DNA of 64,000 bases from IMG/VR virus record IMGVR_UViG_3300009614_000107, one strand, 5' to 3'. Shown piece by piece: positions 1-64,000 of this stretch (its first letter is position 1; each line of letters starts with the position of its first letter). This DNA comes from a virus. Taxonomy: Duplodnaviria > Heunggongvirae > Uroviricota > Caudoviricetes. Both the position numbers and the translations under genes were made by a program. Below the pieces are notes generated by a model. The model was not told the DNA's origin. It did no database searches and saw only the letters and a list, made by a program, of their open reading frames with translations.

Positions 1-303
1 TTACACCAACAGATTGCCCTGACCTTTCTTTGTTAGTTCGAATAGATGAACTACATATGGACCAGCAGGGGTTTCATAGCTGTCTGAGCCTATGTAATAG
101 AGATATGATGGATCGATCTGTATTGGTTGACCAGTTTCAACTAGCCAGAAGTTGCGCTCTTCCTCTGGTTTTTCTATGTCAACAAATGCCCATAGACAGG
201 GTATCTTGTTCTGGAATTTAAATGAAAGAATTTTTGTTCCTTTTGGCATTTTGATTCTTGGGTGATCTGTGTCTGGTAATTGATATTTCCAAATCCTCAA
301 CAT
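1..303 (-). CDS. hypothetical protein (C-terminus runs off window edge)
   Basis: ORF with GGAGG SD 9 nt upstream of ATG at 303; no recognisable motifs. Confidence 0.35.
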   Translation of the reverse strand: MLRIWKYQLPDTDHPRIKMPKGTKILSFKFQNKIPCLWAFVDIEKPEEERNFWLVETGQPIQIDPSYLYYIGSDSYETPAGPYVVHLFELTKKGQGNLLV

Positions 304-599
304 TAGTTTTTCACCTCCTTCAGTTTTTCTAATGTTATAGACTCATAATGTGTTTGAACCAGTGCTAATTTGAATGAGGAATGGAAAGGCTCTAAATAGA
401 AAAGCTGATCAAGACCAAGATTTAAAGTATAAGTTGTCGAGAGTCCACCCATAACATATGTTATTTGTAGACCTATGCACTTTGATACAATCGATGGTCC
501 AGTGTAAACAATTATCCAAAAATTCATTGGGCTAATCTCAAGAATCATTGGATGCCCTAGGTCGAGTGAAACTGTTCCATCATCAACTTTTTTGCTCAC
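303..599 (-). CDS. hypothetical protein
   Basis: ORF in co-directional gene string, overlapping start/stop with neighbours. Confidence 0.35.
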   Translation of the reverse strand: MSKKVDDGTVSLDLGHPMILEISPMNFWIIVYTGPSIVSKCIGLQITYVMGGLSTTYTLNLGLDQLFYLEPFHSSFKLALVQTHYESITLEKLKEVKN

Positions 600-1114
600 T
601 TAAACCACTCCTGTAGATTTTCCTCTTTTGCTTTGCCAACCATTGCTATTCTGTAAACTACATCTGTTGGATTTTTGGGAATAAGTAAACCGTGAATTCT
701 ACACGTGGAGAAGATATTAACTCCATACATCTCTGGTCTAAGCATAAATATATTGTTATTTGGAGTGTGTACAACAATGTATTCTGTATCATCTTTGAGT
801 AGTTTATCTTGGTGTGATTGCCAGAGCCTTGAGTTTCGGCATTGCTTCTCTGTCCAAGTCGGGAACTTCTCCTTCATTTTCTTGGCGTGTGCGCTCAAGT
901 CGAAGGTTCGAATTACAAAATAGTAAGGTGGATCTATTATTGTTGACCATAAAGGAAATTTATCACAGCGTTCACATTGTGGGCATCCATTTGGATTTCC
1001 TTGATATGGTAAGTGACACCACTTTTTGACATATTCACCACCTATGACTCTCTTGAGCATAAGAAGTATGAGGTTGTCGTTCAGGATATTAAAGACTCCA
1101 GGCTCTATAGGCAT
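596..1114 (-). CDS. hypothetical Cys-rich protein with DPPY motif (possible small DNA methyltransferase-like)
   Basis: CPQCERC Zn-binding cluster followed by IIDPPYYF (DPPY = motif IV of N6A/N4C MTases); no motif I seen, so assignment weak. Confidence 0.4.
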   Translation of the reverse strand: MPIEPGVFNILNDNLILLMLKRVIGGEYVKKWCHLPYQGNPNGCPQCERCDKFPLWSTIIDPPYYFVIRTFDLSAHAKKMKEKFPTWTEKQCRNSRLWQSHQDKLLKDDTEYIVVHTPNNNIFMLRPEMYGVNIFSTCRIHGLLIPKNPTDVVYRIAMVGKAKEENLQEWFK

Positions 1115-1456
1115 TTAGATTTCCTTCCAATCATTTGTGTATAATTTTGCACGATACTTACCAACTTTGAAACTTCCAGTGGAAATTGCTATTTGCAAAA
1201 CAAACTGCAAGTCTCTATATATTTCCATCATTCTTGTTTCAACATCATCTGAGTAACCACCATTTTCATCTGGTTCTATTCCAAGTATTCTTCCTATATC
1301 ACCAAACACATATGAGTTACCAAATGGCCGTTTTGGGTCGATTGATGGTGCTCCAAATTCTGTGTCTGTCCAGTCCACATATAGTTCCTTTAGAAGTTTG
1401 ATATGATTTCTTTTGATTTCAAAATATTGATATTTATCGTCCTTAGTTCTTGGCAT
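1115..1456 (-). CDS. hypothetical protein
   Basis: ORF, start overlaps stop of upstream gene. Confidence 0.4.
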   Translation of the reverse strand: MPRTKDDKYQYFEIKRNHIKLLKELYVDWTDTEFGAPSIDPKRPFGNSYVFGDIGRILGIEPDENGGYSDDVETRMMEIYRDLQFVLQIAISTGSFKVGKYRAKLYTNDWKEI

Positions 1457-4539: not shown

Positions 4540-4574
4540 TTCGGGTTTTTCTAATTATTAAGGTACAGTTTATA

Positions 4575-4586
4575 TTTATAAATATT
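4575..4586. promoter_or_regulatory. TTTATAAATATT promoter-like element (BRE/TATA)
   Basis: exact 12-mer about 45 nt downstream of the stop of gene 4585..5001, i.e. a terminator-proximal copy that would serve gene 4336..4539. Confidence 0.5.
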
Positions 4587-5236: not shown

Positions 5237-5692
5237 TTACAGCTTCCAGAATGGCATATGCTTCGTTTCTTCCCTTTTAGGAGTTACCTTCTCAGGGGCA
5301 TTGGAGTTGTCTTGAACTGGAAAAGTAGATTGTTCCTGTTTCTCAGGCTCTTTTTCCTCTTCTTTATCTTCCTCTTTATCCTCTTCTGTTTCTTCTTCCT
5401 CTTCTGGCTCTTCAAATTGTACCTCAACTATGAACCCTGAATCAAACACAAACATAATGTCCTCCTCATCATCATCCATAGTTGTCAAAATTGCAGCATT
5501 AAAGAGTCCAGATAGTATGCCTAGGGAAGAATTAAATGAACCGCCTGAGTTTTCTAGTTGTTTTGCAACTTCTTCATATTTTCCAATATATTTAATTGAG
5601 ATATCTGTATCACTATAATCAAATCGGTTGATTTTTTCTGAATCAGTAAATCTTATGCCTTTCATATAAACAGTGAGTGTCATATTTACCAC
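5237..5692 (-). CDS. acidic Glu-rich hypothetical protein
   Basis: EEPEEEEETEEDKEEDKEEEKEPEKQE low-complexity tract. Confidence 0.45.
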   Translation of the reverse strand: MVNMTLTVYMKGIRFTDSEKINRFDYSDTDISIKYIGKYEEVAKQLENSGGSFNSSLGILSGLFNAAILTTMDDDEEDIMFVFDSGFIVEVQFEEPEEEEETEEDKEEDKEEEKEPEKQEQSTFPVQDNSNAPEKVTPKREETKHMPFWKL

Positions 5693-6021
5693 TCTGGTTT
5701 GGTTGTATAACTCTTAGAGGCATCGTGCCTGTGATTCTTGAACTTATTTTCAAGGTTGGTTAGAGTGCCATCCAACTCATTTAGTTCGGTTGCAAACAAT
5801 GGACCAAACCAATCTCGATGAACAAGCCCTAGCCTGTCAGCTATCACACCTCTCAGGACATCGTATCTTACCATATCCTTTATTATTTCACCATCCATAG
5901 TCTTATCAAACTCTTCAAAAAGTTTGAGTGTTGGAAGGTTCCAAACTTGATTGTACACAGTTCGTTCATCTTCATTCATATTTGAAGTGAAGAATGGGAA
6001 CTCATAATCTGGTTTTGACAT
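5686..6021 (-). CDS. hypothetical protein
   Basis: ORF. Confidence 0.45.
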   Translation of the reverse strand: MSKPDYEFPFFTSNMNEDERTVYNQVWNLPTLKLFEEFDKTMDGEIIKDMVRYDVLRGVIADRLGLVHRDWFGPLFATELNELDGTLTNLENKFKNHRHDASKSYTTKPEW

Positions 6022-6092
6022 TTAGATTACCTTGGATTCCGCTTAGGCGGTGACTCCAGTGAATGTAATCAGTCAAATCTTTATAAATATTA

Positions 6093-6374
6093 TTATTTAA
6101 TTTCAAGTTCCTTGATTTTTTGTATAGCATTATCCATCTGTTTGATAGTGAATTCTAAGCGCATTCTGTATCCTGCTGCTTCTAATGGTAGACCACCAGC
6201 CATAAGAGTAAGACCAAATAACCTGTTTTGGGATTTTAGTGGTTTTATGAACTTCTCGTCCAGTTCATTTAGAACGATTTCTTGTTTCTTTACTTGATTT
6301 AGATAATGAACGTATAATGTCTTTGTATTTTCGAGTTGGGTCACGATTAGATCTCTATCTTCCTTAGTAACCAT
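6093..6374 (-). CDS. hypothetical coiled-coil protein
   Basis: ORF flanked by TTTATAAATATT elements at 6080 and 6404. Confidence 0.4.
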   Translation of the reverse strand: MVTKEDRDLIVTQLENTKTLYVHYLNQVKKQEIVLNELDEKFIKPLKSQNRLFGLTLMAGGLPLEAAGYRMRLEFTIKQMDNAIQKIKELEIK

Positions 6375-6403: not shown

Positions 6404-6415
6404 TTTATAAATATT
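6404..6415. promoter_or_regulatory. TTTATAAATATT promoter-like element
   Basis: exact 12-mer about 30 nt upstream of minus-strand gene start 6374. Confidence 0.55.
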
Positions 6416-6446: not shown

Positions 6447-6788
6447 TTACTTCCGTAAATTGGTGATTTCTTGTGCCTTGCATCTACAGAGTAGACAACG
6501 TGTCATTAGTTCTACTCCATTTTTCTCAACATCAACTTTGCCAGCAATGAGTTTTAGTTTATAGGAATTGGAAATCGGTGTGTTGTGATTCATTCCACGT
6601 GCAAGCATTTCCTTGACTATCTCATCGTGACGTGTGCGGATATGGTGAACTTCAACCAAACCATTTTGGATATATCCTTCAATGCTCTTTCCTTTCTCGA
6701 TGCAACCAACAAACATATGGAGTTCGAGATGTTCACCAAGAAGGTGCTTGTCACACATCATCTGGGGTGGGATCATCCACATTCTCAT
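6447..6788 (-). CDS. denV: pyrimidine-dimer DNA glycosylase (T4 endonuclease V / DenV family)
   Basis: CDKHLLGEHLELHMFVG and GLVEVHHIRTRHDEIVKEMLARGMN align with T4 DenV DQHLMAEYRELPRVFG / [32 protein letters not shown]. Confidence 0.65.
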   Translation of the reverse strand: MRMWMIPPQMMCDKHLLGEHLELHMFVGCIEKGKSIEGYIQNGLVEVHHIRTRHDEIVKEMLARGMNHNTPISNSYKLKLIAGKVDVEKNGVELMTRCLLCRCKAQEITNLRK

Positions 6789-6828
6789 ATGATGAAAAAG
6801 AGGCTGAGTGAACTTATAAATAATTGGG

Positions 6829-7032
6829 TTACTCGATTACGTTTCCATATCTGTCTCTTTTCTTCAATCTCCAAATATAGAGTTCGTGATGCTTGCCATA
6901 TGGGGTTTCAGTGCTTATAATATGAGTTTGCCATTCTGGGTGCTTCTTTTTTATCTTTGTGGCCACTTGCTTGGCACTGCTGAGAGTCTTGTACCAGGCA
7001 TAGTACTTGTATTTATTGAAAAACCCAACCAT
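6829..7032 (-). CDS. small basic protein (tandem paralog family)
   Basis: 67 aa, K/R-rich; shares W/Y-x-T..S.AK..A..IKKK..YIW motif with neighbours. Confidence 0.45.
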   Translation of the reverse strand: MVGFFNKYKYYAWYKTLSSAKQVATKIKKKHPEWQTHIISTETPYGKHHELYIWRLKKRDRYGNVIE

Positions 7033-7236
7033 TTACTTCACCCATTTATGCTTGATTCTTCCGAGCTCACCTAGATGGATGCGTTCTGCACTGATTATGC
7101 GACCAATGGTCATTGCTTCTTCAGAATAACCACCTTTTTCTAGGTTGGCTTGGAATTTCTTATAGTCTGCTATAACTTGTTTCTCCGAAACACGTATAGC
7201 ATGTTCGAGTTGTTTTCTTAGAGTTGCATTCACCAT
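7033..7236 (-). CDS. small hypothetical protein (paralog of 7238..7447)
   Basis: 67 aa; ...EE..HLGELGRIKHKW vs ...EEVHRRELAEIKRKW. Confidence 0.45.
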   Translation of the reverse strand: MVNATLRKQLEHAIRVSEKQVIADYKKFQANLEKGGYSEEAMTIGRIISAERIHLGELGRIKHKWVK

Positions 7237-7237
7237 A

Positions 7238-7447
7238 TTACTTCATCCTCATCCATTTTCTCTTGATCTCTGCAAGTTCTCTACGATGAACTTCCTCTTC
7301 TCGTCTGATTTCAATGATTTTACGTGCTTCTTCCACTCTGCCATTTGCCAAAAGATGAGTATAGAATTTGTTATAGCCACGTATGGCCACAATCTCACCA
7401 CGATCATTGCTGGCAAGTTCCCTAAACTCTGATTTACTAGGTTTCAT
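7238..7447 (-). CDS. small hypothetical protein (paralog of 7033..7236)
   Basis: 69 aa. Confidence 0.45.
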   Translation of the reverse strand: MKPSKSEFRELASNDRGEIVAIRGYNKFYTHLLANGRVEEARKIIEIRREEEVHRRELAEIKRKWMRMK

Positions 7448-7608
7448 TTCAATCTCTCCCCACAGAATGGACAGTGAAGTCCACCGTTTGGAACGTATTT
7501 GTAGACATAACTACCCTTTTTGAAGAGATGTTTGTTCTTACAAACTTTATCCTTTCTAATCTGAATACGTGTTCTTGGTGAACCTTCATCATACTTGAGT
7601 CTCTTCAT
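7444..7608 (-). CDS. small zinc-ribbon protein (54 aa, below ORF-track cutoff)
   Basis: ATG at 7606-7608 with GGAG 8 nt upstream; CKNKH...CPFCG; stop overlaps next start (ATGA). Confidence 0.4.
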   Translation of the reverse strand: MKRLKYDEGSPRTRIQIRKDKVCKNKHLFKKGSYVYKYVPNGGLHCPFCGERLK

Positions 7609-7631
7609 TTTTACATCTCCTAATTTATCAT

Positions 7632-7904
7632 TTAATTGCCTCTAGTATTATGGAAGCCTTTTGCTCCTTTTTTCCTCATCCTTATCCTGTCAAGACGAAG
7701 CACTTCATTTGCATATTGAAGTGGGCCATCGTAGGTGAGATACCAGAAGTGTTTGCTTGGAGTCATTGACCACTCGATAGATGCCTGACCGTGTGGTGTC
7801 TTGTAGTATGAAGCATAATTTGTGTGCTTGTCCTGGTAGGGATCGTTGACGGTTTCCTTTTCTTGACGGACATACTTTACTTTTGGATTTGTCATATTTA
7901 TCAC
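7632..7904 (-). CDS. small basic hypothetical protein
   Basis: 90 aa ORF in array. Confidence 0.4.
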   Translation of the reverse strand: MINMTNPKVKYVRQEKETVNDPYQDKHTNYASYYKTPHGQASIEWSMTPSKHFWYLTYDGPLQYANEVLRLDRIRMRKKGAKGFHNTRGN

Positions 7905-8107
7905 AGTTTTAGGAACGCTTCTATCATTGCTCTGCTAAATCCTTCCTTTTTAGCATTGATAGCAAAGACTTCTTTCTTGTCAAGACGCTTTGGAACAGTG
8001 CCACCATATATTGAGGTTGGATAACTGTTTTGCCAAACTCTCTGCATACGATCTGCTTTTGTCTTTCCATATTTCTTTACGAAACGCTGTTCATCATCAA
8101 AACCCAT
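7901..8107 (-). CDS. small basic hypothetical protein
   Basis: 68 aa. Confidence 0.4.
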   Translation of the reverse strand: MGFDDEQRFVKKYGKTKADRMQRVWQNSYPTSIYGGTVPKRLDKKEVFAINAKKEGFSRAMIEAFLKL

Positions 8108-8118
8108 TTCATTTCCAC

Positions 8119-8340
8119 CTACATAGTATATCTGCTTTGATTCCAGAATAGCTTTTTAATACTCTTCTGGGGTCTGAGTTTATCTTTTGGAACCCTGACA
8201 ACGTACAGCCCATTTGGTAATTGGTAGATGGTGTGTTTCCACTCTTTGGAAACTCTCTTAGATACTTCAATTGAGAGTGTGGCTAACCACTTACTTTTAT
8301 CACGAACAATCGCTTCTTGACTTATTTTTCGTATGGTCAT
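8119..8340 (-). CDS. small basic hypothetical protein
   Basis: 73 aa. Confidence 0.4.
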   Translation of the reverse strand: MTIRKISQEAIVRDKSKWLATLSIEVSKRVSKEWKHTIYQLPNGLYVVRVPKDKLRPQKSIKKLFWNQSRYTM

Positions 8341-8492
8341 TTGCTTTTCCTCCTAACTTTTCTAACTACTCCGAACTTGATATCTAAATCAGAAATCCTG
8401 TATAGTGATGCAGGATATTCTTTATGTAAAAATTCCAATGCTTGTTTATAGTTTTTTGCCATAACTCTGACAGATTGGTAAGTTGTCATTTT

Positions 8493-8693
8493 TTATTTTC
8501 TCCTATATTCTTTCTGGTATTCTTTACGTAGACGCTTGTCTATGTATGTGTAAGTCTTGCCACAGTATGGACAACCAACTTTGCAGAAGCCACTTGCAGA
8601 CATTTCACTCCAGCCCTCATCGGGTTTAAGGTGTCTATGGCAGTACGGACAAGTGCCTGTCTTGTTCTCTGAAACCCTTTTCATTACCATTTT
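8493..8693 (-). CDS. small zinc-ribbon protein
   Basis: CPYCHRH...CKVGCPYCGK; start trimmed to internal Met (MVMKR) abutting upstream stop. Confidence 0.4.
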   Translation of the reverse strand, partial: KMVMKRVSENKTGTCPYCHRHLKPDEGWSEMSASGFCKVGCPYCGKTYTYIDKRLRKEYQKEYRRK

Positions 8694-8961
8694 ACTTCCA
8701 GTTCCCCTTTTTGTACCAGCTTGGATATGAGTGCTTATTCTTATACTGTACAAGGTAATGCTTTGGATCGTATTTTGGTCTTGAGTGAGATATACTTACT
8801 CTTAACATATCGCCCCTGTGTTTTGCATTGTCAGCAACTATCTTAGCTTCTTCATATGTTTCGGCTGTGAACACTAACTTGTTTGCCTTTCCCTGGGCTT
8901 TACCCCATCCAGACAAAAATTTGTCTGTCATTGTGACCCAATACTTGTAAGTTGTGACCAT
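8692..8961 (-). CDS. small basic protein (paralog family)
   Basis: FTAETYEEAKIVADNAKHRGDMLRVSISH...YLVQYKNK family motif; SD GGAGAGCGAAAAAGTAAATG. Confidence 0.45.
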   Translation of the reverse strand: MVTTYKYWVTMTDKFLSGWGKAQGKANKLVFTAETYEEAKIVADNAKHRGDMLRVSISHSRPKYDPKHYLVQYKNKHSYPSWYKKGNWK

Positions 8962-9114
8962 TTACTTTTTCGCTCTCCTAAGATGAACTTGCGTAGGCTT
9001 GTATGTTGTCCCGTCTGTGAACTTCTTACGTGCCTCTCTTGCACTATCAGCAACTACTTTGTGCCATCTTCCACCCCTGTGGGGATATTTTAACTCATAA
9101 ACGTGTTTGGTCAT
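8962..9114 (-). CDS. small basic protein (50 aa, paralog-family half-domain; below cutoff)
   Basis: MTKHVYELKYPHRGGRWHKVVADSAREARKKF...; TAATG coupling to next gene. Confidence 0.35.
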   Translation of the reverse strand: MTKHVYELKYPHRGGRWHKVVADSAREARKKFTDGTTYKPTQVHLRRAKK

Positions 9115-9120
9115 TTTATG

Positions 9121-9339: not shown

Positions 9340-9341
9340 TT

Positions 9342-10628: not shown

Positions 10629-10629
10629 T

Positions 10630-11642: not shown

Positions 11643-11643
11643 T

Positions 11644-54199: not shown

Positions 54200-54924
54200 G
54201 ATATTATCTCCTTTTCGTGATTACTAGAAAGCATAGTGTTTTTTGTATATGACAGTTCGGTGATTATTTTCTTGATTTCTTTATCATTTCTTTCCCACCA
54301 TTTAGTCTTTAAAATAAGGTTAATTGTATCTATATTAAATCTATATCTTATCAGTTTTGCTGGATTTCCAGCAACAATTGCATATGGTGGAACGCTGTGT
54401 GTAACAACAGAACCAGCACCAATAACAGCACCATCACCTATTGAAACCGAAGTTAAAATAATGGCATTCAAACCTATCCAGACATCATTACCTATAGTAA
54501 TTTTGCCATTTTTTGAATGAAGCCATTCTGTTGGTGTGTTATGATTTATAAAGCCATATTCTTTCTCTGAAGTAAATGGGTGTGTTGTTAGTCTATCAAT
54601 TGGATGATTACCATTTGAGATAATTACACCATCAGCAATCGAACAGAAACTACCAATTGATGCAAGCCTTTCAATATCAAGGTGCATAAATTGTATATAT
54701 CCATAAGTATATTTTCCAACATCTATATTGAGATATTTTTTGAAATAAAATCTTCCAATGTGTTGATCTTTATATTTTAAATTTATCTTAGCAAGTAATA
54801 AAGCAGATATCTGTCTAAAAAATTGTGTAGGTTGCATTCTGCTTATGATATGAATAACTCTAAGTTCACTTTCTTCTATGGTAGTGACTTTTGAGTTATT
54901 TCTATCAGACATATATAACACCAA
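54178..54924 (-). CDS. hexapeptide-repeat acetyltransferase
   Basis: IGNDVWIGLNAIILTSVSIGDGAVIGAGSVVT...AGNPAKLI. Confidence 0.65.
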   Translation of the reverse strand: MVLYMSDRNNSKVTTIEESELRVIHIISRMQPTQFFRQISALLLAKINLKYKDQHIGRFYFKKYLNIDVGKYTYGYIQFMHLDIERLASIGSFCSIADGVIISNGNHPIDRLTTHPFTSEKEYGFINHNTPTEWLHSKNGKITIGNDVWIGLNAIILTSVSIGDGAVIGAGSVVTHSVPPYAIVAGNPAKLIRYRFNIDTINLILKTKWWERNDKEIKKIITELSYTKNTMLSSNHEKEIISCLSKLN

Positions 54925-54925
54925 A

Positions 54926-56266
54926 TCATTTTGATAGGAATCCTAGCATTCCTAGGGCATCATTCACAACATTTTTCCATTCACGTGGGTTTGTTACAAC
55001 ATTCATCCAGAACTTGGGATTTTTGATATAGAATTCCTTGAAACAGTACTGTTCCCATTGCTGCATCTCATTAAAGTCCATCATATGTTTTCCAGGCATA
55101 TCCTTGTAGGATGCTATAACATCCATTATTGGGACATTTGGATAGGCTTGTAACTGTGCAACATTGATCCTTGTAGCATTGTTATCCTTAATCCATTTGA
55201 CCATATATTTTATCTGGTCAGGTGTCATCCAAGGGAAAATCATAAAAGAAGAGGATGTCCAAAGACCAACTTTATTGACATTTTTGATAAACTGCTCTTC
55301 TTGTTCAACTGTGATATCTTTTTTGATTTCGTCTAGGATACTTTGAATTGGAACCTCATAACCAACATGTAGAGTTCGACACCCAGCTTCTTTCATTAAT
55401 TTGAGGGTTTCGTAATCTTTATCTGCCCTGCTATATGCACCCCAACACATCTCTAAACCCTCATCAATTATGGCTTGACTAATCTCTTTTGCCCAAGGTG
55501 TGATTAGAGTTGAGTCTTGGAAGAACACCTGATTCACTTCTGGAAGTTCATTTTTTATGTACCAAAGTTCTTCCATTAATTTTGAAAGGCTTCGTGTTTG
55601 TGTCCTATCTGGGTCGAGCTGATACATTCCATTTACCCAAGAGCAGAAAGCGCATCTATGTGGACAACTTCCGTGACCATAGAAGAGATCGGTAAATGGG
55701 TGTCTAAAACTTGTTTGATAGTAAGCAGGAATTATAAGGTGTTTCTTATAGACACTTGTGACAAATGGCATCCAATCAAGATCTATTCTGGTGTATGGTT
55801 TTCCTTGCGGAATGTATCTACCATCACTATACGTTACTCCCTTTGCTGGTCTTTTCTCGATAAGTTCTGGTAATGTGTACTCAAACTGCCCCCAAGTCAT
55901 TGATTCTACAGATGGGCATTCCCAGAGAGCATTAGGATAGTGTGCGCTCCAAGGACCAACAAGTATAACTCTGTATTTTTGAGCCAACTGTTCTGCATAT
56001 GCCAAATCTTCAAATCTTGTATCATATGCCCAGTAGTAGGCAATTACTTCTGGGTTATAGTCTTGGATTATCTGGTTTGTTTTATCTATGCTGGTTTTGA
56101 GAACAGAAGCATCATATAACATACATTCATAGCCTAACTTTTCAAGAACACCAGTTGCATATGCTAAAAAAATCGGTGGCCAAGATTGTGTGCTGATCTT
56201 GCTTTTACGGACAAGCCTTCCTGTCCGAATTATATCCCCAGGGGGATTCAAAAGAAAGATTTTCAA
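54926..56266 (-). CDS. B12-binding radical SAM enzyme (class B)
   Basis: CPHRCAFCS CxxxCxxC; N-terminal B12-binding-like region. Confidence 0.75.
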   Translation of the reverse strand: MKIFLLNPPGDIIRTGRLVRKSKISTQSWPPIFLAYATGVLEKLGYECMLYDASVLKTSIDKTNQIIQDYNPEVIAYYWAYDTRFEDLAYAEQLAQKYRVILVGPWSAHYPNALWECPSVESMTWGQFEYTLPELIEKRPAKGVTYSDGRYIPQGKPYTRIDLDWMPFVTSVYKKHLIIPAYYQTSFRHPFTDLFYGHGSCPHRCAFCSWVNGMYQLDPDRTQTRSLSKLMEELWYIKNELPEVNQVFFQDSTLITPWAKEISQAIIDEGLEMCWGAYSRADKDYETLKLMKEAGCRTLHVGYEVPIQSILDEIKKDITVEQEEQFIKNVNKVGLWTSSSFMIFPWMTPDQIKYMVKWIKDNNATRINVAQLQAYPNVPIMDVIASYKDMPGKHMMDFNEMQQWEQYCFKEFYIKNPKFWMNVVTNPREWKNVVNDALGMLGFLSK

Positions 56267-56269
56267 CCA

Positions 56270-57205
56270 TTACACCTTATCCCACGTAGGTGGCTCAAGT
56301 GCATCCTGAGCTTCGTAGTATGTAAATAAGGTATTGATGATTTTATAAATATCACTCTTTGGATGCCAGTTTTGTTGTCTTGCAATCTTATCTATATCAA
56401 GTGTAGATTCTTTGACATACCCAGGTGCTTTAAAATCAGTCAATGTAAAGTTTGTTTTGTAGCCCTTTGTTGCTGCAACTTCGGATACTAGTTTTGCTAA
56501 ATCACCAGTGGAAATTTCCATTCCCATCGAGACATTATATAGTCCTGTATTTTCTGGTAGGTTGAATGTTGGTGCTTTCATTACAGCATCAACAATATCG
56601 TTCACATCTACTAAATCACGATAGGCTTGTCCTTGACAGAATATTTGTTCAGGAATCCCTCTTATTGCACTCCAAACCAATCTGTTAGGGAAGCAACGTC
56701 CTCTGGTTCCGACAACTGTCCCAAATCTGAAAACAACATTCTTCTTTCCAGACTTGCGTATGATTTCTTCTGCAATCCATTTGGAATAGCCATATTGTGA
56801 TGAAAGATTTACAGGACTGAGCTCCGTAAATTTCCTTCCTTCACCATAAAGATTTGCAGTTGATGAAATTACAATCATTTTTGGGTTGATTGCTCTGAGT
56901 GCATTGTAAGTTCCAATAGAATTATTGTAGAAAGCATCCTTGCTACCGTGGAACCAGCCTTCTAAGTCCTTAACCATTGACCAAGGAGTTGCAGCGAGAT
57001 GATAGAGTACTTCTGGTGGCTCATCTGGGAACATAAAATCGTCTTTTGACAAGTCACCATATTGATAGATAACACCCCTTTTCAATTCATATTTTGGGGT
57101 AACTTTGTCAATGTTTATAACTTTCTTTCCAGAAAGCCTTAGTGCCTCAACTAGGTGTGAACCTATGAAACCTGATCCACCTGTTACAACTACTATTCCA
57201 CCCAT
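56270..57205 (-). CDS. NAD-dependent sugar epimerase/dehydratase (extended SDR)
   Basis: VVTGGSGFIGSHLV Rossmann motif and YGYSK catalytic YxxxK. Confidence 0.8.
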   Translation of the reverse strand: MGGIVVVTGGSGFIGSHLVEALRLSGKKVINIDKVTPKYELKRGVIYQYGDLSKDDFMFPDEPPEVLYHLAATPWSMVKDLEGWFHGSKDAFYNNSIGTYNALRAINPKMIVISSTANLYGEGRKFTELSPVNLSSQYGYSKWIAEEIIRKSGKKNVVFRFGTVVGTRGRCFPNRLVWSAIRGIPEQIFCQGQAYRDLVDVNDIVDAVMKAPTFNLPENTGLYNVSMGMEISTGDLAKLVSEVAATKGYKTNFTLTDFKAPGYVKESTLDIDKIARQQNWHPKSDIYKIINTLFTYYEAQDALEPPTWDKV

Positions 57206-57292
57206 TTACTTTTTCTCCTTTACTTTTTTAACACCTATCAATCCAGCCCACATCATCTGACCAGAAAACTCCATAACTCCCCACAGCCATCC

Positions 57293-57850
57293 CTATGGTG
57301 AAACTTCTATCAATCCATTAGAATACATAATCCAACTAGCCCAATATCCACTAACTGTTAGATAATATAATGATCCTGTAAATATTAATCCAAGTATCCA
57401 AAACCATTTTGAAATACTTAAAAAATTATATATTTTACCCAGTATAATTACAGTTGCAATCATAATCATTCCAATTACAAAATGTGATATACCATAAGTA
57501 CCAAAAAACATAATATATATATCATTACCAATACCAGTATTTGGTTCGTAAAAAACTTTTTCAACCCACCAAGCAAAATCATGTGATATTAAAATAGATG
57601 CCATGATAACAAGCACCATCACTGAATATCGTATTGTATAATGAATTTGTCTGGTTTCGTAATATAATACTATATACAATAAACACCAAGTCAAAACTGT
57701 AATAGAATGTGGAGTAAATGGTGTGAATGGAATTGCTATTCCTCTTATATCAAACAATCCATATCGAAAGATGTTGACAATGGCAACTATCATTACTACT
57801 ATTGCAGGAGATAGTGCTAAAAAGTCAAATAATTCACCTTTATTGACCAA
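57293..57850 (-). CDS. polytopic membrane protein
   Basis: about 6 TM helices. Confidence 0.4.
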   Translation of the reverse strand: MVNKGELFDFLALSPAIVVMIVAIVNIFRYGLFDIRGIAIPFTPFTPHSITVLTWCLLYIVLYYETRQIHYTIRYSVMVLVIMASILISHDFAWWVEKVFYEPNTGIGNDIYIMFFGTYGISHFVIGMIMIATVIILGKIYNFLSISKWFWILGLIFTGSLYYLTVSGYWASWIMYSNGLIEVSP

Positions 57851-57866
57851 AATTTATTTCACCATT

Positions 57867-58286
57867 TTATTTTACTTCCTTTTTTAGGTGAACTTCATAG
57901 AATATCCAGATCCAACTACTACAAGCATATGTGCCAGAGATTATAAATATTAATGAAGTTAGCCTTGTCCAAGGCAAAATCCATGTGATTAGTGAGGCTA
58001 TAGATAACCCAATACCTATAAGCAACGTCTTAAATGATGTGGGATTATCCATATAAAATTCATCGTGCTTTGTACCATCTGCTTCAGTCACGTGAAAGAT
58101 AGTTGGCTCTGGTAAATTTCTACAAGTTATAAAGAAATATAGAATTACCATAACACCAATAAATCCAATTATAACAGAGCTAACGTGCATTTCTGGTGAT
58201 ATAAAATCAAGAATTCCGATTGCTAATATTAAAATTGCTGATGTATATAATGATGCAAGTGTTGGTGGTTCTCCAACTATACCCAT
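57867..58286 (-). CDS. polytopic membrane protein
   Basis: 4 TM helices. Confidence 0.4.
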   Translation of the reverse strand: MGIVGEPPTLASLYTSAILILAIGILDFISPEMHVSSVIIGFIGVMVILYFFITCRNLPEPTIFHVTEADGTKHDEFYMDNPTSFKTLLIGIGLSIASLITWILPWTRLTSLIFIISGTYACSSWIWIFYEVHLKKEVK

Positions 58287-58498
58287 TAGAGCAACCCACC
58301 TCTGGCTTCATCCATCTCCTTGAATGTCTGTTTATAGTTGCTTAGAAGCAGAGGTATTCCACTAAGAGGAATATAGAAAAGCATTATGTGGAAATGATAA
58401 TGAATCTCTTTCCAAATCCACACATATATGAAAGCAGCCATATCTATTGTAATATATCCTAATCCAGTCAGCTTCAAAATTTCAAAAATATCTATCAT
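58286..58498 (-). CDS. small membrane protein
   Basis: 2 TM helices. Confidence 0.35.
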   Translation of the reverse strand: MIDIFEILKLTGLGYITIDMAAFIYVWIWKEIHYHFHIMLFYIPLSGIPLLLSNYKQTFKEMDEARGGLL

Positions 58499-59703
58499 TT
58501 TCTGGATAGCTCCTTAATTACACGTCTTTGAATTGTGATAAAGAAAATTATTGAAACCAAAGCGACAGAGGATAGGAACGACACTCCACATAATATGGCC
58601 AAGGTTGCAAGCAACTTGCCTTCAGCCAAGTAGACTATAATTGCTTGGATTCCTGCCCACATAGAGAATATGAAGAGAACCAAGGCTGGTAATCCGAGAA
58701 CAGTGTATGGTCTTGCCCATATTCCAGACCAGAAAATAGAGTTAATTAGATTTAATCCCTGGGATAGGAGATTGCTGGCTGGCTTCTCTGGTTTGTTGTA
58801 TGTTATTACACATGGAACTTCTGAAATTTTCATATTTTCTTCTTTTGCAATATTAAGTATCTCAAGGGAAGCACCCATTCCATCGTCTGTAATTTTTATG
58901 GACTCGATTGCCTTTCTACTGTAAGCTCGGAATCCACACTGTGTATCACCGATTTTGTAGATTAGGTTGAGTGCTGAGATTACTGCTTTTCTATGAAGAG
59001 GAACCTGTTCTCCTGCTAAGAACCTGTTGCCTATCACTATATCTGAGGTTTGTAGAGCAGTTAGGAATCTGGGAATCTCATTTGGATTGTGTTGTCCATC
59101 TCCGTCCAAAGTGATAAGGGTATCATAGTAGTTTTCTTTTGCATATTTGAATATCTCATAAAGTGCTTGTCCATATCCAGACCATTTGAAATCAAGAACT
59201 TGTGCTCCAAGAGACTTTGAGATTTCTGCTGTTCCATCCATCGAGCCATTTGATACAACTAGAACATTGCCAAATTTTTTGGCTTCTTTTATAACATCAC
59301 TGATATTATCCTGTTCGTTATGTGCTGGTATCCCTATGAGGATCCTGCTTCTTGTAGTGTGAATTAGGCATCTTACATATTCTGAGGAGAAGAGTTGTTT
59401 GGATTCCTCTAGGTTGAGAACATCGTCACAGCCTATGATATGATAGTGCTGGGGAACAGAGGCGTATGTCCCGAAAACCATATAGAAGGTTTCTGTCTTG
59501 CAGTTTTGCTCCATATATGAACGTAATCTATCTAGGCAGTGGGCAAACTCTGCTGGTGTTGGTGTCTCTGTATGGCGGTTTGTGACAACCATAATACGTA
59601 AATTGTGTCCTTTTGGTTCCTTTGTTTTAACTATGTAACAGAGATCATCCTGGTAAAGTAATTGTTCCCGTTGTGGGATTGTGCAAAGGGGGCATTCAGA
59701 CAC
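58495..59703 (-). CDS. HIT-like domain fused to DPM1-like GT2 glycosyltransferase with C-terminal TM helices
   Basis: N-terminal CPLCTI...DDLCYIVKTKEPKGHNLRIMVVTNRH...SVPQHYHIIG (HIT pattern); then IGIPAHNEQDNI...VSNGSMDGT GT2; two C-terminal TM. Confidence 0.6.
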   Translation of the reverse strand: MSECPLCTIPQREQLLYQDDLCYIVKTKEPKGHNLRIMVVTNRHTETPTPAEFAHCLDRLRSYMEQNCKTETFYMVFGTYASVPQHYHIIGCDDVLNLEESKQLFSSEYVRCLIHTTRSRILIGIPAHNEQDNISDVIKEAKKFGNVLVVSNGSMDGTAEISKSLGAQVLDFKWSGYGQALYEIFKYAKENYYDTLITLDGDGQHNPNEIPRFLTALQTSDIVIGNRFLAGEQVPLHRKAVISALNLIYKIGDTQCGFRAYSRKAIESIKITDDGMGASLEILNIAKEENMKISEVPCVITYNKPEKPASNLLSQGLNLINSIFWSGIWARPYTVLGLPALVLFIFSMWAGIQAIIVYLAEGKLLATLAILCGVSFLSSVALVSIIFFITIQRRVIKELSRK

Positions 59704-60128
59704 TACTTAACTCCACCAGCCACAGTAGGATAAATTAACTTTAATGCTAGGAATATAATCAGCACAATAATGATTATGGAATCACTGAAGATTTTTGGTG
59801 CTTTTGCACGTTGCATTATATCACCATAAATTACTTCTGCTTTTCCAATTATAAAACCACCAACACTTTCACAACCAATCATAAGGATATATGCAGCAAA
59901 TGCGTATGTAGCAAACCCAAGTATCGTCATATTTTCAAAGTTTAACACACTTGTGAGAATGTTTGGTTCTATTACCATAGCTGTCATTATACCGACTACA
60001 AAACCAACAGCAATTTTCATTTGTCTATATTGAAATGTGTCTTTGAATGAATATTCTTCATCTTTATGTTCATCTGCATCCTCTTTCAGGAATGTCTTGA
60101 CCTTTTCTTTCAGATCATTTAGGTTCAT
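59703..60128 (-). CDS. GtrA-like small polytopic membrane protein
   Basis: 141 aa, 4 TM. Confidence 0.35.
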   Translation of the reverse strand: MNLNDLKEKVKTFLKEDADEHKDEEYSFKDTFQYRQMKIAVGFVVGIMTAMVIEPNILTSVLNFENMTILGFATYAFAAYILMIGCESVGGFIIGKAEVIYGDIMQRAKAPKIFSDSIIIIVLIIFLALKLIYPTVAGGVK

Positions 60129-60786
60129 CTGTTATCCCAGCCACAAACTTTTCCCAAGCCTCATCAAATTCCTTGATGGTGGTTTCTGTTCTTGGATGGG
60201 TTATCATACCCATAAGGACTTCATAGGATACTGTAACAATGTCTGCACCGTAACTGAAGGCTAGTGGAACATCTAATGGACTCCTAATACTTCCAGCAAT
60301 GATCTCTGCTGGTGGATCCCAGTCTGAACCGTGCTCTAGAAGGTAGATATGTGATAGCCTGAAAGCATCTTCAACTGCTTCCATATTCTTTTCATTCCAG
60401 TCAAGTATGCGGTTATAGAAGAGTGAAACATATCTTGCACCAGCTTCCATAGCAAGAATTGCCTGGGAAGCGGTCATTAGACACGTTGCATTTGTTGGGA
60501 TTCCGTTTTCTGTGAGTTCCGCTATTACTCCAAGTCCCTTGCCATCACTCCACATTGGGACTTTTATTACAATATTGCTATGGTTTATATCAAACAAATC
60601 CTTGGCTTCGTTGATTAATTCATCAATGGAACCCTTGGAGTTTGTAAGTTCGACACTTATTGGACCATCTACAATATCACAGATATCCGCTATTGCTGAT
60701 ATGTAGGCTTCCTTTGAATACTTCATACCAGATTTTCTGAAGATATTTTGGTTTGTTGTGACTCCATGAATCACACCCAAATCCAA
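60115..60786 (-). CDS. transaldolase / fructose-6-phosphate aldolase family (short type)
   Basis: GVTTNQ; Schiff-base lysine context IVIKVP...GIPTNATCLMTASQAILAMEAGARYVSLFYNRI. Confidence 0.75.
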   Translation of the reverse strand: MDLGVIHGVTTNQNIFRKSGMKYSKEAYISAIADICDIVDGPISVELTNSKGSIDELINEAKDLFDINHSNIVIKVPMWSDGKGLGVIAELTENGIPTNATCLMTASQAILAMEAGARYVSLFYNRILDWNEKNMEAVEDAFRLSHIYLLEHGSDWDPPAEIIAGSIRSPLDVPLAFSYGADIVTVSYEVLMGMITHPRTETTIKEFDEAWEKFVAGITDEPK

Positions 60787-60955
60787 TGCCTTTTCTATTT
60801 CATCTATCTTTGCTGTATCTAAAAAGATTGTCGTACCCTCATCATCTCCAAAGCCTTGTATATAATAACTGGAACCATAAGACCGATGAGTATGGCTTCC
60901 TTAATGCCTATTTCATCGTCTTTGTCCATATAGAACGTTTTTCTCAATGTCATTT

Positions 60956-61333
60956 CTAACACCTCAATAGATCGGGATTGATTTGCGCCAGAGGATGTTT
61001 CTTTTTGACAAAGTAATATGCTTCGTCACGTGACATTCCCATTTTTTCAAGCCAAAGAATTATTATGAATACTGATCTGGACATACCAGCTCTGCAACAG
61101 ACAAGAACTTTCTGATTACTTCCCAGTGCGTTTTCTAAATCTTTAAGAATTGTTGAAAATGCCTCTTCTGGGTTTGTACCATCATCATTTAAACGAAATT
61201 GATAGCAGTTTGGTAAATGACCGAGATCGAAGCCACCAACGTTAATTATATGGTTTATTTCATATTTATTAATATCATCCATAGCTATGAAGGAGTCACC
61301 AACATATAATCTGTCTAAGATTTTTGTTATCAT
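60956..61333 (-). CDS. dual-specificity (CX5R) protein/sugar-phosphate phosphatase
   Basis: VLVCCRAGMSRS active-site P-loop. Confidence 0.6.
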   Translation of the reverse strand: MITKILDRLYVGDSFIAMDDINKYEINHIINVGGFDLGHLPNCYQFRLNDDGTNPEEAFSTILKDLENALGSNQKVLVCCRAGMSRSVFIIILWLEKMGMSRDEAYYFVKKKHPLAQINPDLLRC

Positions 61334-61890
61334 TTTTGAACCAGCCTCTTCAACTCGTGGCAGACTAGGTGGGTGTAAACAGAATGAATTCCCTCAACAA
61401 CATACACATCCCCAGAACTAATTGTCAGGAAATGTGCGGTTGGGAATAACTTGGCTAAATCTCCACCATTATTCCCAGAAAGAATGAAGATTTCCCCCTT
61501 CTTTTCCTTAGCCAGATTTGCAGCACCTACTAGGTTCTGACTCCATTGCCCAGCATCCTGCTGTCCTGCTCCACCGTGAACGGTAATCAGGATAAGTCCA
61601 TCACCTTGAGTGAAATATTTCATTTGTTCGGTGTAGACTCTGCTCCATCCTCTGTCATTTGTGAGTGCTGATAATCTAGGTGCATTATCCACCATCGAAG
61701 TGACATCAAAACCAAGGTTCATCAAGTCTGATGCAAAATGGCTTGCTGTCGCTAGTGAACCGCCATTACCAGCAACAAAAATTCTCTTTCCCATCCTTCT
61801 AACAGCCATTAATTTCTGTGAGAAATCTTTAATGTCCTTTATGGATGTTGCCTTGAGCATATCGATTACTACAGTCTTTGGTTCAATCAA
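61330..61890 (-). CDS. SIS-domain phosphoheptose isomerase (GmhA-like)
   Basis: RIFVAGNGGSLATASHFASDL similar to GmhA GNGGSAADAQHFAAEL. Confidence 0.7.
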   Translation of the reverse strand: MIEPKTVVIDMLKATSIKDIKDFSQKLMAVRRMGKRIFVAGNGGSLATASHFASDLMNLGFDVTSMVDNAPRLSALTNDRGWSRVYTEQMKYFTQGDGLILITVHGGAGQQDAGQWSQNLVGAANLAKEKKGEIFILSGNNGGDLAKLFPTAHFLTISSGDVYVVEGIHSVYTHLVCHELKRLVQK

Positions 61891-62825
61891 GCCTCAATCA
61901 CTCTGGATCCATTTTGGTAGAATTTGAATGGCACGTATGGTAAGCCAATATTATTCATAGCCTTGATCAATTTAGCCTTATCCTGATTTTTGGCTGTATA
62001 GAACAATAAAAAGCCACCTCCACCAGCACCAATTATCTTTCCACCAAGTGCGCCTGACTTCATTGCTAATTCATATGCCTTGTCAATATCTGGATTTGTC
62101 ATCTCTGGAGTTATCTGACGTTTAGTTTTCCAATGAACATCAAGAGTTCTTCCAAACTCATCATATTCACAGGCTTCAAGCGCACTGAAACTTCTCTCAC
62201 CGAGTTGCATTATTTTAAGCATATTTTCATCATCATTGCCAACTTTGGCAAGTATGGGGTTGGCATCTCTTGTGAAATTTGTGTAGAATAGTGATAAATG
62301 ATCTTCCAAGCCTGGAACTTCCATCTTTTTACTCATAACAAGTCCAGCCTTATTTATTGTGTAAACACGAATTCCACCATAAAGTGCAGTATATTGATCT
62401 TGTTTACCAACTGGATGTCCAAGTGATCTATCCAAGTCAAAGGCTAGTTCTGCAATATTATTAATTGGTGTCTTTGTGTAGACTGAAAGAGCATTAATTA
62501 AACCAACAGCAAATGAACAGGAAGAACCCATACCGCTTCCACTTGGTAAGTCGGATAATGTTGTGATATCTACGTGATCTCTAATGTTAAAGTATTCTAG
62601 GGCAACTCTAATGAACTTATGTTGAATATCATCAAGTTCGTTTGCTATCTCTATCCTTGAATATGCCAAACGAATTGGACTTTCGAATCTAGAATTAATT
62701 GCAACGTAAACAAACTTATCAATTGCAGCAGAAATCCAGAACCCATCGTGTTTAGTATAGAACTCTGGTATATCTGTACCCCCACCGCCTAGGGGAAGTC
62801 TATGAGGTGTTTTGGATATTATCAA
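61887..62825 (-). CDS. GHMP-family sugar kinase (HddA-like heptose-7-phosphate kinase candidate)
   Basis: LPSGSGMGSSCSFAVG GHMP motif; N-terminal PLGGGGTD. Confidence 0.7.
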   Translation of the reverse strand: MIISKTPHRLPLGGGGTDIPEFYTKHDGFWISAAIDKFVYVAINSRFESPIRLAYSRIEIANELDDIQHKFIRVALEYFNIRDHVDITTLSDLPSGSGMGSSCSFAVGLINALSVYTKTPINNIAELAFDLDRSLGHPVGKQDQYTALYGGIRVYTINKAGLVMSKKMEVPGLEDHLSLFYTNFTRDANPILAKVGNDDENMLKIMQLGERSFSALEACEYDEFGRTLDVHWKTKRQITPEMTNPDIDKAYELAMKSGALGGKIIGAGGGGFLLFYTAKNQDKAKLIKAMNNIGLPYVPFKFYQNGSRVIEA

Positions 62826-63492
62826 CTTTCTTTTTCCTCCAAACTGGTGCGTCTTTCTTAATTGCTAGAAACACAATAACTGTACAAATTAGCCTATCTA
62901 GCATATAATATGGTGTATTCCAAACTGTCTCATTTGCGTTTGCTGATGGTGGTATATACCAACCAAGCATAAACAGAGTGGCTATTACAAGACCGAGAAC
63001 AATTAATCCTAATGATTTTTTATCTGTTTTCCAGCCAGTTGTTTTTAATATGAACCAAACAAACATCAGACTTACTAGGTGAAGAACCCAGTCTAACTGG
63101 AAACCAAGAATAAATGCGTTTGTGATTAGATATGGAACTTCCCAATAATGAGATCCTATGAACACAACTAGAACAGATATTGCTATAGCTTGTGGAAAAT
63201 CCCATTTTTTAACTACCATTAGGTATAATGCAAATACAAATCCAACTCCAATATAGAACATAAACAGAGTTATTATTGGATTTGCTTGAATAACATTATT
63301 AAGAAATGGGATCATTCCTTTCAATAAATAAGAAATACCCAGAAGCATAATCGCAACGGGCATTAAGACTACCATTAAATTGTTTAGTTTCTTGCTTTTA
63401 AAATAAAAGAAATACATCCAGAAGATTGGCTGTAACCACACCATTGTGAAGTCAAGTAAAGAATAAAAATCACTTGTATTCATTGAATTCAA
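62800..63492 (-). CDS. polytopic membrane protein
   Basis: 6-7 TM helices. Confidence 0.45.
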   Translation of the reverse strand: MNSMNTSDFYSLLDFTMVWLQPIFWMYFFYFKSKKLNNLMVVLMPVAIMLLGISYLLKGMIPFLNNVIQANPIITLFMFYIGVGFVFALYLMVVKKWDFPQAIAISVLVVFIGSHYWEVPYLITNAFILGFQLDWVLHLVSLMFVWFILKTTGWKTDKKSLGLIVLGLVIATLFMLGWYIPPSANANETVWNTPYYMLDRLICTVIVFLAIKKDAPVWRKKKVDNIQNTS

Positions 63493-64000
63493 GTCCTATT
63501 TATTGCAAGCCAATCCCATTCTGCTTTGTAGAGTGCAGCTACGTTTTTATCTGTGATTAAAAGCATATTTTCTGCATTTTCTGTTTCGGCTGCGGTTGTC
63601 CAATTGAAACTTCCTGTTGTAACATAGACACCATCAACAATCATAAATTTATTGTGCATTATTCCAGAACCTGTGTCAAAGGAAACTTTGATATTTTCAT
63701 ATCTTCCTATATAAGAAAACATATTTCCTTCAGTTCTCTGGGATGGTTCTCCAATAACATATATTTTGATGCCTCTGTTTCCAGCAGCAATTAAAGCATC
63801 TGCAATATTTTGACTTGTAAATGAGTAAATAGCTATGTATATTGTAGAGTTTGCATTGTTAATTAGTTTGATTACTTCGTTGGAACAGCTAGTATGTGTT
63901 GAGAAAAAGACTTTGACATTTGTTGAATATGGTTCTGGTGGTCCGTGGGCAATTATCCCAGGAAGATTAGAACCAATTGACAGTCCTATAATGAATACTA
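63489..64000 (-). CDS. phospholipase D / HKD-nuclease family protein (N-terminus beyond window)
   Basis: HKD motif HNKFMIVDG...GSFNWT; frame open upstream to window edge. Confidence 0.55.
   Translation of the reverse strand, partial: VFIIGLSIGSNLPGIIAHGPPEPYSTNVKVFFSTHTSCSNEVIKLINNANSTIYIAIYSFTSQNIADALIAAGNRGIKIYVIGEPSQRTEGNMFSYIGRYENIKVSFDTGSGIMHNKFMIVDGVYVTTGSFNWTTAAETENAENMLLITDKNVAALYKAEWDWLAINRT

Follow-up and report, generated by a model that had tools for sequence, protein, structure and literature searches.

The 64,000-nt stretch of DNA analysed here (the window, meaning this whole stretch) comes from an IMG/VR record of a virus assigned to the Caudoviricetes (IMGVR_UViG_3300009614_000107), and it raises the question of why one short sequence should stand, nearly unchanged, in front of so many of its genes, and which protein would read it there. 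The motif is a promoter core of 12–16 bases, tCAnAATATTTATAAA, which joins a B recognition element (BRE) to a TATA box and recurs near letter-for-letter before ~20 genes, operons and tRNAs. Very probably it is a reiterated, near-optimal archaeal BRE/TATA promoter from which many small units of the replication, repair and tRNA region are expressed. Observed directly were the motif itself and its excess over expectation, the strictness of its orientation and spacing, its retention by relatives, and an intact gene for transcription factor B (TFB). The archaeal core promoter comprises a TATA box of 7-8 bp and an A-rich BRE adjoining it upstream, with the start of transcription located ~22-27 nt downstream, and leaderless mRNAs are common (PMC7289017).

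Sequence and placement of the motif

A scan of both strands with TTTATAAATATT returned 26 matches at no more than one mismatch, against 1.82 ± 1.27 expected from 100 dinucleotide shuffles, the largest of which gave 5. Fourteen of the 26 are exact, 13 in the sense of minus-strand transcription and one (33421) in the plus sense; the exact copies written as TTTATAAATATT on the plus strand read AATATTTATAAA in the sense of the minus-strand genes. Four one-mismatch copies are in promoter position (15348, tRNA-Trp; 20618, tRNA-Met/Ile; 22342; and 22690, tRNA-Thr), the matches at 4571 and 6076 are the reverse reading of exact sites, and six (23127, 23943, 46623, 47515, 56342, and 57940) lie within coding sequence, where they are probably chance or unproven internal sites. 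An earlier note on this DNA, made from the letters alone, had pointed out the motif, and the observation is borne out both by this excess and by the placement of all exact copies in non-coding gaps. The positions listed there were right except for 15826, 20416, 22348 and 22692, which become 15817, 20415, 22342 and 22690, the last two being one-mismatch copies. Given that the GC content of the window is 31–44% and that the motif is wholly A/T, it might be taken for a chance product of AT-rich intergenic DNA. However, none of the 100 shuffles exceeded 5 matches, the motif is equally present in a relative of 51% GC (L001, TFB 53% identical; 7 matches at no more than one mismatch vs 0.01 expected), and AT-rich IMG/VR contigs picked for one match hold only 1-3 matches each. 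Chance is thus scarcely credible.

The 18 copies in promoter position were aligned on the transcribed strand to build a logo, in which 12 positions are invariant or nearly so (AATATTTATAAA). The TATA box TTTATAAA is invariant in all 18 sites, and the AATA extension, invariant or nearly so, is found on the upstream side only, the 4 nt downstream being unconserved. In the upstream flank, numbered relative to the TATA box, T at -8 is shared by 12 of the 18 sites, C at -7 by 14, and A at -6 by 11, and the transcribed-strand consensus is tCAnAATA-TTTATAAA. No conservation was found beyond ~16 nt in either direction in this alignment, and because the flanks are otherwise unconserved the motif is a selected one rather than part of a duplicated segment. 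This bears on the possibility that the copies are a dispersed repeat spread by duplication or recombination and marking cassette boundaries, as do the repeats of the halovirus HF2 or the promoter-stem-loops of T4, with promoter activity being secondary. The copies do stand at the borders of small cassettes (single tRNAs, single ORFs), where they abut the 3' end of the previous gene, and in the related locus L031 two copies share ~25 nt of identical flank. In the window, however, only 12-16 nt are conserved between unrelated flanks, and the motif is kept in relatives whose proteins are 30-50% identical and whose GC differs greatly. Its persistence despite this divergence and GC difference argues for selection on the sequence itself, and we consider a dispersed repeat unlikely.

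After correction of start codons that the longest-open-reading-frame (ORF) rule had pushed upstream, every exact copy lies in a short non-coding gap and is oriented, from BRE to TATA box, toward the feature that it precedes (Table 1). The distance, counted as the bases between the last motif base and the feature, is 21, 21, 22, 25 and 27 to the 5' end of the tRNA in the five tRNA units. The distance to the start codon is 19, 24, 25, 28, 28, 29, 29 and 32 for eight ORFs, 35-58 for four further ORFs, and 81 for the gene of a replication factor C (RFC) subunit, the leader of which holds a GAGG ribosome-binding site. Position and orientation, together with the TATA box and its one-sided BRE, agree with the earlier note, which took the element for an archaeal BRE/TATA promoter that reads (t)CAnAATATTTATAAA along the transcribed direction. 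Its statement that each gene, short operon or tRNA unit has a copy of its own, often adjoining the preceding 3' end, is also upheld: the copy at 22577 touches the 3' end of tRNA-Thr, that at 25968 is 9 nt past the stop codon of the family B DNA polymerase (PolB), and that at 16818 is 5 nt past the 3' end of tRNA-Arg. Of ~27 transcription units in the window, 14 are headed by an exact copy, four by a one-mismatch copy (the UvrD unit and three tRNA units), and two by a two-mismatch variant (6813 and 44285). Between 4.5 and 41 kb the motif does precede nearly all transcription units, as the earlier note claimed (~19 of 23), and the claim fails for roughly half of the genes, i.e., those of an array of tiny ORFs, PolB, and the genes of 41-64 kb.

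The 8-mer TTTATAAA is its own reverse complement, and direction is carried solely by the one-sided upstream extension. The motif might accordingly be an operator for a dimeric regulator, or a bidirectional promoter, that makes use of the quasi-palindrome, and the earlier note had raised both possibilities. The core is a perfect palindrome, the symmetry is extended at 4571-4586 (TATATTTATAAATATT) and 6076-6091 (AATCTTTATAAATATT), and positions 6033-6050 of L001 form a perfect 18-mer palindrome. Yet only the 8-bp core is palindromic in general, the AATA/C extension being one-sided in nearly all copies and the 4 nt downstream unconserved; the orientation fits the downstream gene at every exact copy and in 28/28 matches of the wider family described below; and no plus-strand genes lie opposite the symmetric sites. 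Moreover, the divergent pair at 33371/33421 uses two opposed copies, back to back and 38 bp apart, where a single copy would do if it were bidirectional. An operator or bidirectional role is therefore very improbable. The three symmetric sites themselves are near-perfect or perfect palindromes of 16-18 nt (e.g. AATATTTATAAATATT) with a BRE-like flank on both sides, and antisense transcription from them is possible.

In the mechanism that we propose for the promoter reading, the TATA-binding protein (TBP) would bind the TATA box, which as a perfect palindrome is directionless, and TFB would read the one-sided BRE (t-C-A-n-A-A-T-A) via its C-terminal helix-turn-helix (HTH), thereby setting the orientation. 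Host RNA polymerase would then be recruited and would start ~22-25 nt past the TATA box, so that most mRNAs would be leaderless or have a short leader, and tRNA precursors would have almost no 5' leader. One copy per small unit of the replication, repair and tRNA regions would yield uniformly strong, host-independent-looking expression. The likeliest role of the TFB encoded by the element would be to supply or replace TFB at the motif promoters, including that of its own gene. We infer both the start of transcription at the copies and the identity of the acting TFB (host, viral or both) from the DNA sequence. Since the palindromic TATA box leaves direction to the BRE, the motif offers a clean natural system for effects of the BRE on promoter strength and direction. 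It may also serve as a tool which marks the starts of transcription units, corrects start codons (as for TFB), and flags candidate non-coding RNA.

Table 1. PolB, TFB and the motif copies in promoter position, with coordinates in the window.
Feature	Position	Strand	Context
Exact copy	4575-4586	-	Heads operon from 4539 down to window start; gap 4540-4584
Exact copy	6080-6091	-	58 nt before ATG of ORF 5686-6021; heads 4-gene unit
Exact copy	6404-6415	-	29 nt before ATG of ORF 6093-6374
Two-mismatch variant ATTATTTATAAG	6813-6824	-	24 nt before ATG of pyrimidine-dimer DNA glycosylase (6447-6788)
Exact copy	15217-15228	-	41 nt before ATG of SPFH/Band-7 gene (13331-15175); 8 nt past tRNA-Trp 3' end
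One-mismatch copy AAGATTTATAAA	15348-15359	-	27 nt before tRNA-Trp 5' end (15320)
Exact copy	15817-15828	-	ORF 15369-15797: 28 nt before ATG, 19 nt before TTG
Exact copy	16818-16829	-	22 nt before tRNA-Lys(UUU) 5' end (16795)
Exact copy	17015-17026	-	21 nt before tRNA-Lys(CUU) 5' end (16993)
Exact copy	18659-18670	-	29 nt before ATG of 69-aa ORF; heads unit down to ~17033
Exact copy	20415-20426	-	19 nt before ATG of 96-aa ORF; 7 nt past tRNA-Ile 3' end; unit includes collagen-repeat protein 19297-20142
One-mismatch copy AATCTTTATAAA	20618-20629	-	21 nt before tRNA-Met 5' end (20596); tRNA-Ile next
One-mismatch copy AATATTTATAAG	22342-22353	-	28 nt before ATG of ORF 22089-22313; then UvrD-like helicase 20629-22086
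Exact copy	22577-22588	-	Abuts tRNA-Thr 3' end; precedes candidate non-coding RNA 22354-22556
One-mismatch copy AATATTTATAAC	22690-22701	-	25 nt before tRNA-Thr 5' end (22664)
TFB, 315 aa	24995-25942	-	Zn ribbon, linker, two cyclin folds, C-terminal HTH
Exact copy	25968-25979	-	9 nt past PolB stop codon; 25 nt before TFB ATG
PolB	25989-28325	-	Adjoins TFB; PolB-TFB adjacency kept in relatives
Exact copy	33371-33382	-	32 nt before ATG of ORF 32352-33338; heads operon down to 28436
Exact copy, sole plus-sense	33421-33432	+	81 nt before TTG of RFC small-subunit-like clamp loader 33514-34497
Exact copy	40794-40805	-	43 nt before ATG of ORF 40199-40750; heads unit down to uracil-DNA glycosylase (UDG) gene 38399-38935
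Two-mismatch variant AATATTTATCAT	44285-44296	-	49 nt before start of ORF 43543-44235; GGAGG ribosome-binding site between

TFB of the element and the motif in its relatives

The TFB gene was not part of the earlier note, nor was the conservation of the motif in distant relatives. The protein matches PF08271 (Zn ribbon) and PF00382 (two TFIIB repeats) above the Pfam cut-off, and its residues 16-304 align to human TFIIB and 126-304 to TFBc of P. woesei (1D3U). The recognition helix reads VTEVSIRNHVR, as compared with VTEVTVRNRYK in the P. woesei TBP–TFB–DNA structure 1D3U, and the four cysteines of the zinc ribbon are invariant across the TFB clade. The start was corrected to 25942 from 26005; the longer reading is only 93% covered by close homologues, which fits the shorter start. 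Based on these features, the product looks like a complete, functional general factor. Close homologues (51-75% identity) were found in metagenomes only, and cellular TFBs are at most 36% identical. A search of IMG/VR with the single sequence and with an alignment gave only one distant match of cellular type, and the GTDB genomes searched with the alignment gave only distant cellular TFBs at 26-31%.

The motif precedes the ATG of TFB by 25-26 nt in the window, in L024 (AATATTTATAAA) and in L025 (AATATTTATAAG), and in L001 and L007 (~51-53% TFB identity) AATGCTTATAAG occupies this upstream position. A wider family is defined by PolB homologues at ~50% identity, on contigs that reach 94, 102 and 214 kb (the P0053 contigs measuring up to 213,709 nt), which share the synteny RFC ↔ … PolB–TFB–XPD helicase … UvrD; their TFBs are ~30% identical to that of the window. 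The family consensus in relatives is CATAAYATTTAWAWA, always on the gene strand. The PolB-family loci carry tCATAACA-TTTATA(A/T)A, with several copies each in L026, L032 and L033, and in L029 tCATAACATTTATAAAt occurs 8-11 times in 22 kb. The regular expression CA.AA.ATTTA[TA]A[AT]A has 28 matches in 206 kb of family loci against ~0.3 in shuffles, all on the gene strand, and none in 199 kb of cellular TFB loci, which are mostly GC-richer DNA. A scan of IMG/VR with the 17-mer TCATAACATTTATAAAT gave 57 single matches, no more than chance would give, and the sites were clustered on no contig. With the queries used, the family members L026-L033 had no match in the GenBank phage collection or IMG/VR, and the motif could aid in recognizing members of the family in metagenomes.

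A second uniform class, aaCCGAAA(G/T)(G/C)TTTA(A/T)A(A/T)A, was found in L026 at 2210, 3330, 8573, 9892 and 20627, as well as in L032 at 15549. In the form aaCCGAAAGG-TTTAAATA it precedes PolB-TFB in L026, and the CATAACA class precedes the downstream genes. This second type (CCGAAAnnTTTAWAWA) is absent from the window.

Transcription control in archaeal viruses is poorly known, and the standard view is that host TBP, TFB and RNA polymerase act together with small repressors (PMC5569661). A different arrangement, possible but in our judgement doubtful, is that CATAAYA-TTTATAAA constitutes a virus-specific promoter class read only by the viral TFB, the archaeal counterpart of a phage sigma cascade, while host TFB starts a few early units such as PolB-TFB; the viral TFB would afterwards direct host RNA polymerase to this class, the promoter of its own gene included. 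TFB is kept beside PolB across the family, and its gene bears the motif in the window, L024 and L025, the window PolB being without it. The two classes of L026 are distributed in this way, with the canonical CCGAAAGG-TTTAAATA before PolB-TFB and CATAACA before the downstream genes. Furthermore, the density of the motif is 2.8-8.6 per 10 kb at TFB-adjacent loci as against 0.6-0.9 in L030 and L031, which have no visible TFB, although the latter comparison involves two partial contigs. On the other hand, the BRE conforms to what is general among archaea, and a host ribosomal-protein operon is preceded by the identical CATAAC BRE. The viral recognition helix is near-canonical, the window has no promoters of the second type, and the BRE is nearly alike between clades whose TFBs are only ~30% identical. 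The system bears on the question of whether a viral TFB provides promoter selectivity or a boost in supply.

Nature of the element, its host, and known systems

The window is nearly all coding, mostly on the minus strand, and contains seven tRNA genes; an Rfam search of the window found no rRNA or other known RNAs besides these. The replication and repair genes include XPD-like and UvrD-like helicases, two clamp-loader subunits, a PD-(D/E)XK nuclease and a DUF3987 primase-helicase. Also recognizable are an AP2-HNH endonuclease, uracil-DNA and pyrimidine-dimer glycosylases, an SPFH protein, a collagen-repeat protein and a GH5 cellulase, and most of the remaining ORFs are without family (ORFans). 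Genes for capsid, portal, terminase, integrase and TBP were not found in the window, which is part of a genome only. The replication module, the HNH endonuclease, the arrays of ORFans, and the presence of an integrated element among the relatives mark the window as a portion of what looks like a large archaeal virus, or a mobile element resembling one, and not of a cellular chromosome, in agreement with what the earlier note had suggested from the uniform promoter.

The integrated relative, L001, begins with the RNase P subunits p30 and Rpp14, followed by a tyrosine integrase. Its p30 is 85% identical to the p30 of a 527-kb contig, and the named relatives are all Bathyarchaeota/Bathyarchaeia. 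The uninterrupted site is present in that chromosome (L034) in the order p30–Rpp14–RpoN–S2 (L001 1-2178 vs L034 10001-11100). This gene order, and the divergence a few bases past the shared stretch, indicate that L001 is an element inserted just after Rpp14. The TFB clade is linked in this way to Bathyarchaeia, a putative host group for the window's own element.

In 20.7 kb of a Bathyarchaeia chromosome (49% GC) that is close kin of the host of L001, no TTTATAAA, TTTATATA or TTTAAATA was found; the integrated element, of a GC similar to the host stretch, has eight TTTATAAA. The host upstream regions contain degenerate TATA-like stretches. The host L7Ae–S28e–L24e ribosomal-protein operon reads CATAACGTTTAAAAA, with the same CATAAC BRE as the viral consensus. 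Judged by this small host sample, the viral motif resembles the host promoter in idealised form rather than a foreign specificity.

Several observations weigh against our interpretation of the motif. Six one-mismatch copies are inside coding sequence and show no sign of function. PolB, the tiny-ORF array, the cellulase gene and the glycan cluster (44-64 kb) are without the motif, and the absence from several major units means that it is one promoter class and not a universal promoter. The recognition helix of the viral TFB is close to the cellular consensus, so that nothing marks the viral over the host TFB as the one used. Lastly, the host in the comparison is that of a relative, represented by only ~14 upstream regions.

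As in the canonical archaeal core promoter, the motif has an 8-bp TATA box, an A-rich BRE immediately upstream, and a direction set by the BRE. In contrast to cellular promoters, which are degenerate, the window has 12 positions invariant over 14 copies, and core-promoter positions that are normally free (-5, -2, -1) are largely fixed across the virus family. The halovirus HF2 (Haloferacalesvirus), likewise a large archaeal virus, has reiterated intergenic promoter repeats whose sequence and position are kept among its relatives, along with PolB and tRNAs (PMC8707807). Its repeats are units of 29 bp and 58 bp that drive very long transcripts, whereas those of the window have a core of only 12-16 bp and serve many short units; the HF2 abstract makes no link to a TFB (PMC8707807). 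Long repeat units of the HF2 type are ruled out by the confinement of conservation to ~16 nt, and no sequence relationship to HF2 was found, the PolB of the window being 24% identical to the haloviral PolB.

Magroviruses (Magrovirales/Aoguangviridae) resemble the present element in encoding a TFB and a replisome with PolB, RFC-S and helicases (PMC10768690). A tblastn search with the PolB and TFB of the window matched no magrovirus record in the phage collection, and no published link of magroviruses to a promoter motif was found in the literature searched. Annotated TFB homologues are also carried by the Halorubrum tailed virus OP630574, Acidianus rod-shaped virus 3 and Sulfolobales virus YNP2, and TFB homologues are known from thaumarchaeal conjugative elements (PMC6563490). 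These annotated virus and element TFBs, and every TFB in the phage collection, are at most 28% identical to that of the window. TFB, promoters and PolB (as such) go unmentioned in the paper on Bathyarchaeia viruses, whose families show no obvious match (PMC10848311). A Borg-type extrachromosomal element was rejected. Tandem Repeats Finder (TRF) detects only short, weak arrays and no Borg-like tandem repeats, and the sole relative with host flank sits in Bathyarchaeia, whereas Borgs are associated with Methanoperedens.

Phage-encoded sigma factors, such as those of T4 and SPO1, are accompanied by uniform classes of phage promoters. The likeness is that the virus brings its own initiation factor and that its genes share a uniform promoter; it is a functional analogy only, given that the machinery here is TFB/TBP and not sigma, and that the specificity of the viral TFB is putative. 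Archaeal core promoters, and the conserved intergenic promoter repeats of HF2 (PMC8707807), are of a kind already known. What appears to be new is the degree of uniformity, its conservation across an apparently undescribed family of large archaeal virus-like elements, and its pairing with a conserved virus-encoded TFB, i.e., of a general initiation factor with an unusually uniform, family-conserved core promoter. We tentatively raise the further idea, to which we give less than even weight, of an undescribed family of large (up to at least 214 kb) archaeal viruses, probably of Bathyarchaeia, that run a virus-owned transcription in which a TFB, kept adjacent to PolB and positively autoregulated through its own promoter, redirects host RNA polymerase to a uniform BRE/TATA class specific to the virus. 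If true, this would be the archaeal equivalent of the takeover by phage sigma factors.

Units without the motif and accompanying features

Upstream of PolB, the gap 28326-28435 is free of the motif and offers no more than a weak TATA-like stretch, GATAAATATATAAC. The motif is likewise missing from the long operons of 44-64 kb, from ORF 43153-43410, and from ORF 15901-16671, which may be read through from tRNA-Lys. In the same region, tRNA-Arg(UCU) is located 2 nt after tRNA-Lys(CUU) and is probably co-transcribed with it from the 17015 copy.

The tiny-ORF array (6829-13236, minus strand; ~6.4 kb) consists of ~25-30 tightly packed, translationally coupled ORFs of roughly 40-110 aa, with no internal copies of the promoter motif. 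Its junction GGAGGAAAAAGTAAATG recurs, combining ribosome-binding site, stop and start, and the coding strand is strongly A-rich. An alternative genetic code for the ORF-poor 6.8-13.3 kb was rejected, as no reassignment of stop codons opens long ORFs. The array is headed by a 94-nt non-coding gap (13237-13330, minus strand), located between it and the SPFH gene, with repeats of GTAAAGT / GCAGT / GGAGT (TRF: period 10, 4 copies) and without a BRE/TATA consensus. This gap resembles L025 642-732 (72-76% identity, E=1e-6), which sits upstream of the TFB promoter of L025. Conceivable roles are those of a regulator-binding array, of an iteron region like that of an origin, or of a promoter of a different class.

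Similar arrays of tiny ORFs are present in the relatives L026-L029, and the family (L026-L033) carries same-strand arrays of this kind together with 7-deazaguanine genes (QueC/QueD/QueE/GTP cyclohydrolase I). Some PolB genes of the family are longer (~1,080-1,104 aa), two of them being listed with Pfam domains of the intein or homing-endonuclease kind, and one family locus has a gene resembling the CCA-adding enzyme.

Within the tRNA region, the segment 22354-22556 (minus strand) is a candidate for a novel non-coding RNA. It is ~200 nt long and GC-richer, folds at -66 kcal/mol (z = -3.2 vs shuffles), and is without a convincing start codon, the sole in-frame start being a GTG 8 nt past the 22577 motif. 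It belongs to no Rfam family, and neither the phage collection nor the fetched relative loci gave a match.

The gene at 40871-43147, on the minority (plus) strand, encodes a protein of 758 aa that has a GH5 cellulase domain (E=5e-38), and it is preceded by a non-consensus TATA stretch, ATTTATATTA. Such cargo is unusual in a virus-like element of archaea; the protein may be a depolymerase. The sequence of 44462-64000, lower in GC (31-38%), is a cluster for sugar and glycan synthesis arranged in long overlapping operons without an exact promoter copy. It encodes GT2 glycosyltransferases, a B12-radical SAM enzyme, an epimerase, WbqC, a PIG-L deacetylase, hexapeptide acyltransferases, methyltransferases, a transaldolase, a SIS domain, a GHMP kinase and a dual-specificity phosphatase. 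Finally, in the convergent gap between the primase-helicase (plus) and UDG (minus) genes at 38323-38398, AAAGCGA repeats form an inverted repeat (…AGAGCGATCTTTCGCTCTT…) that is probably a bidirectional terminator.

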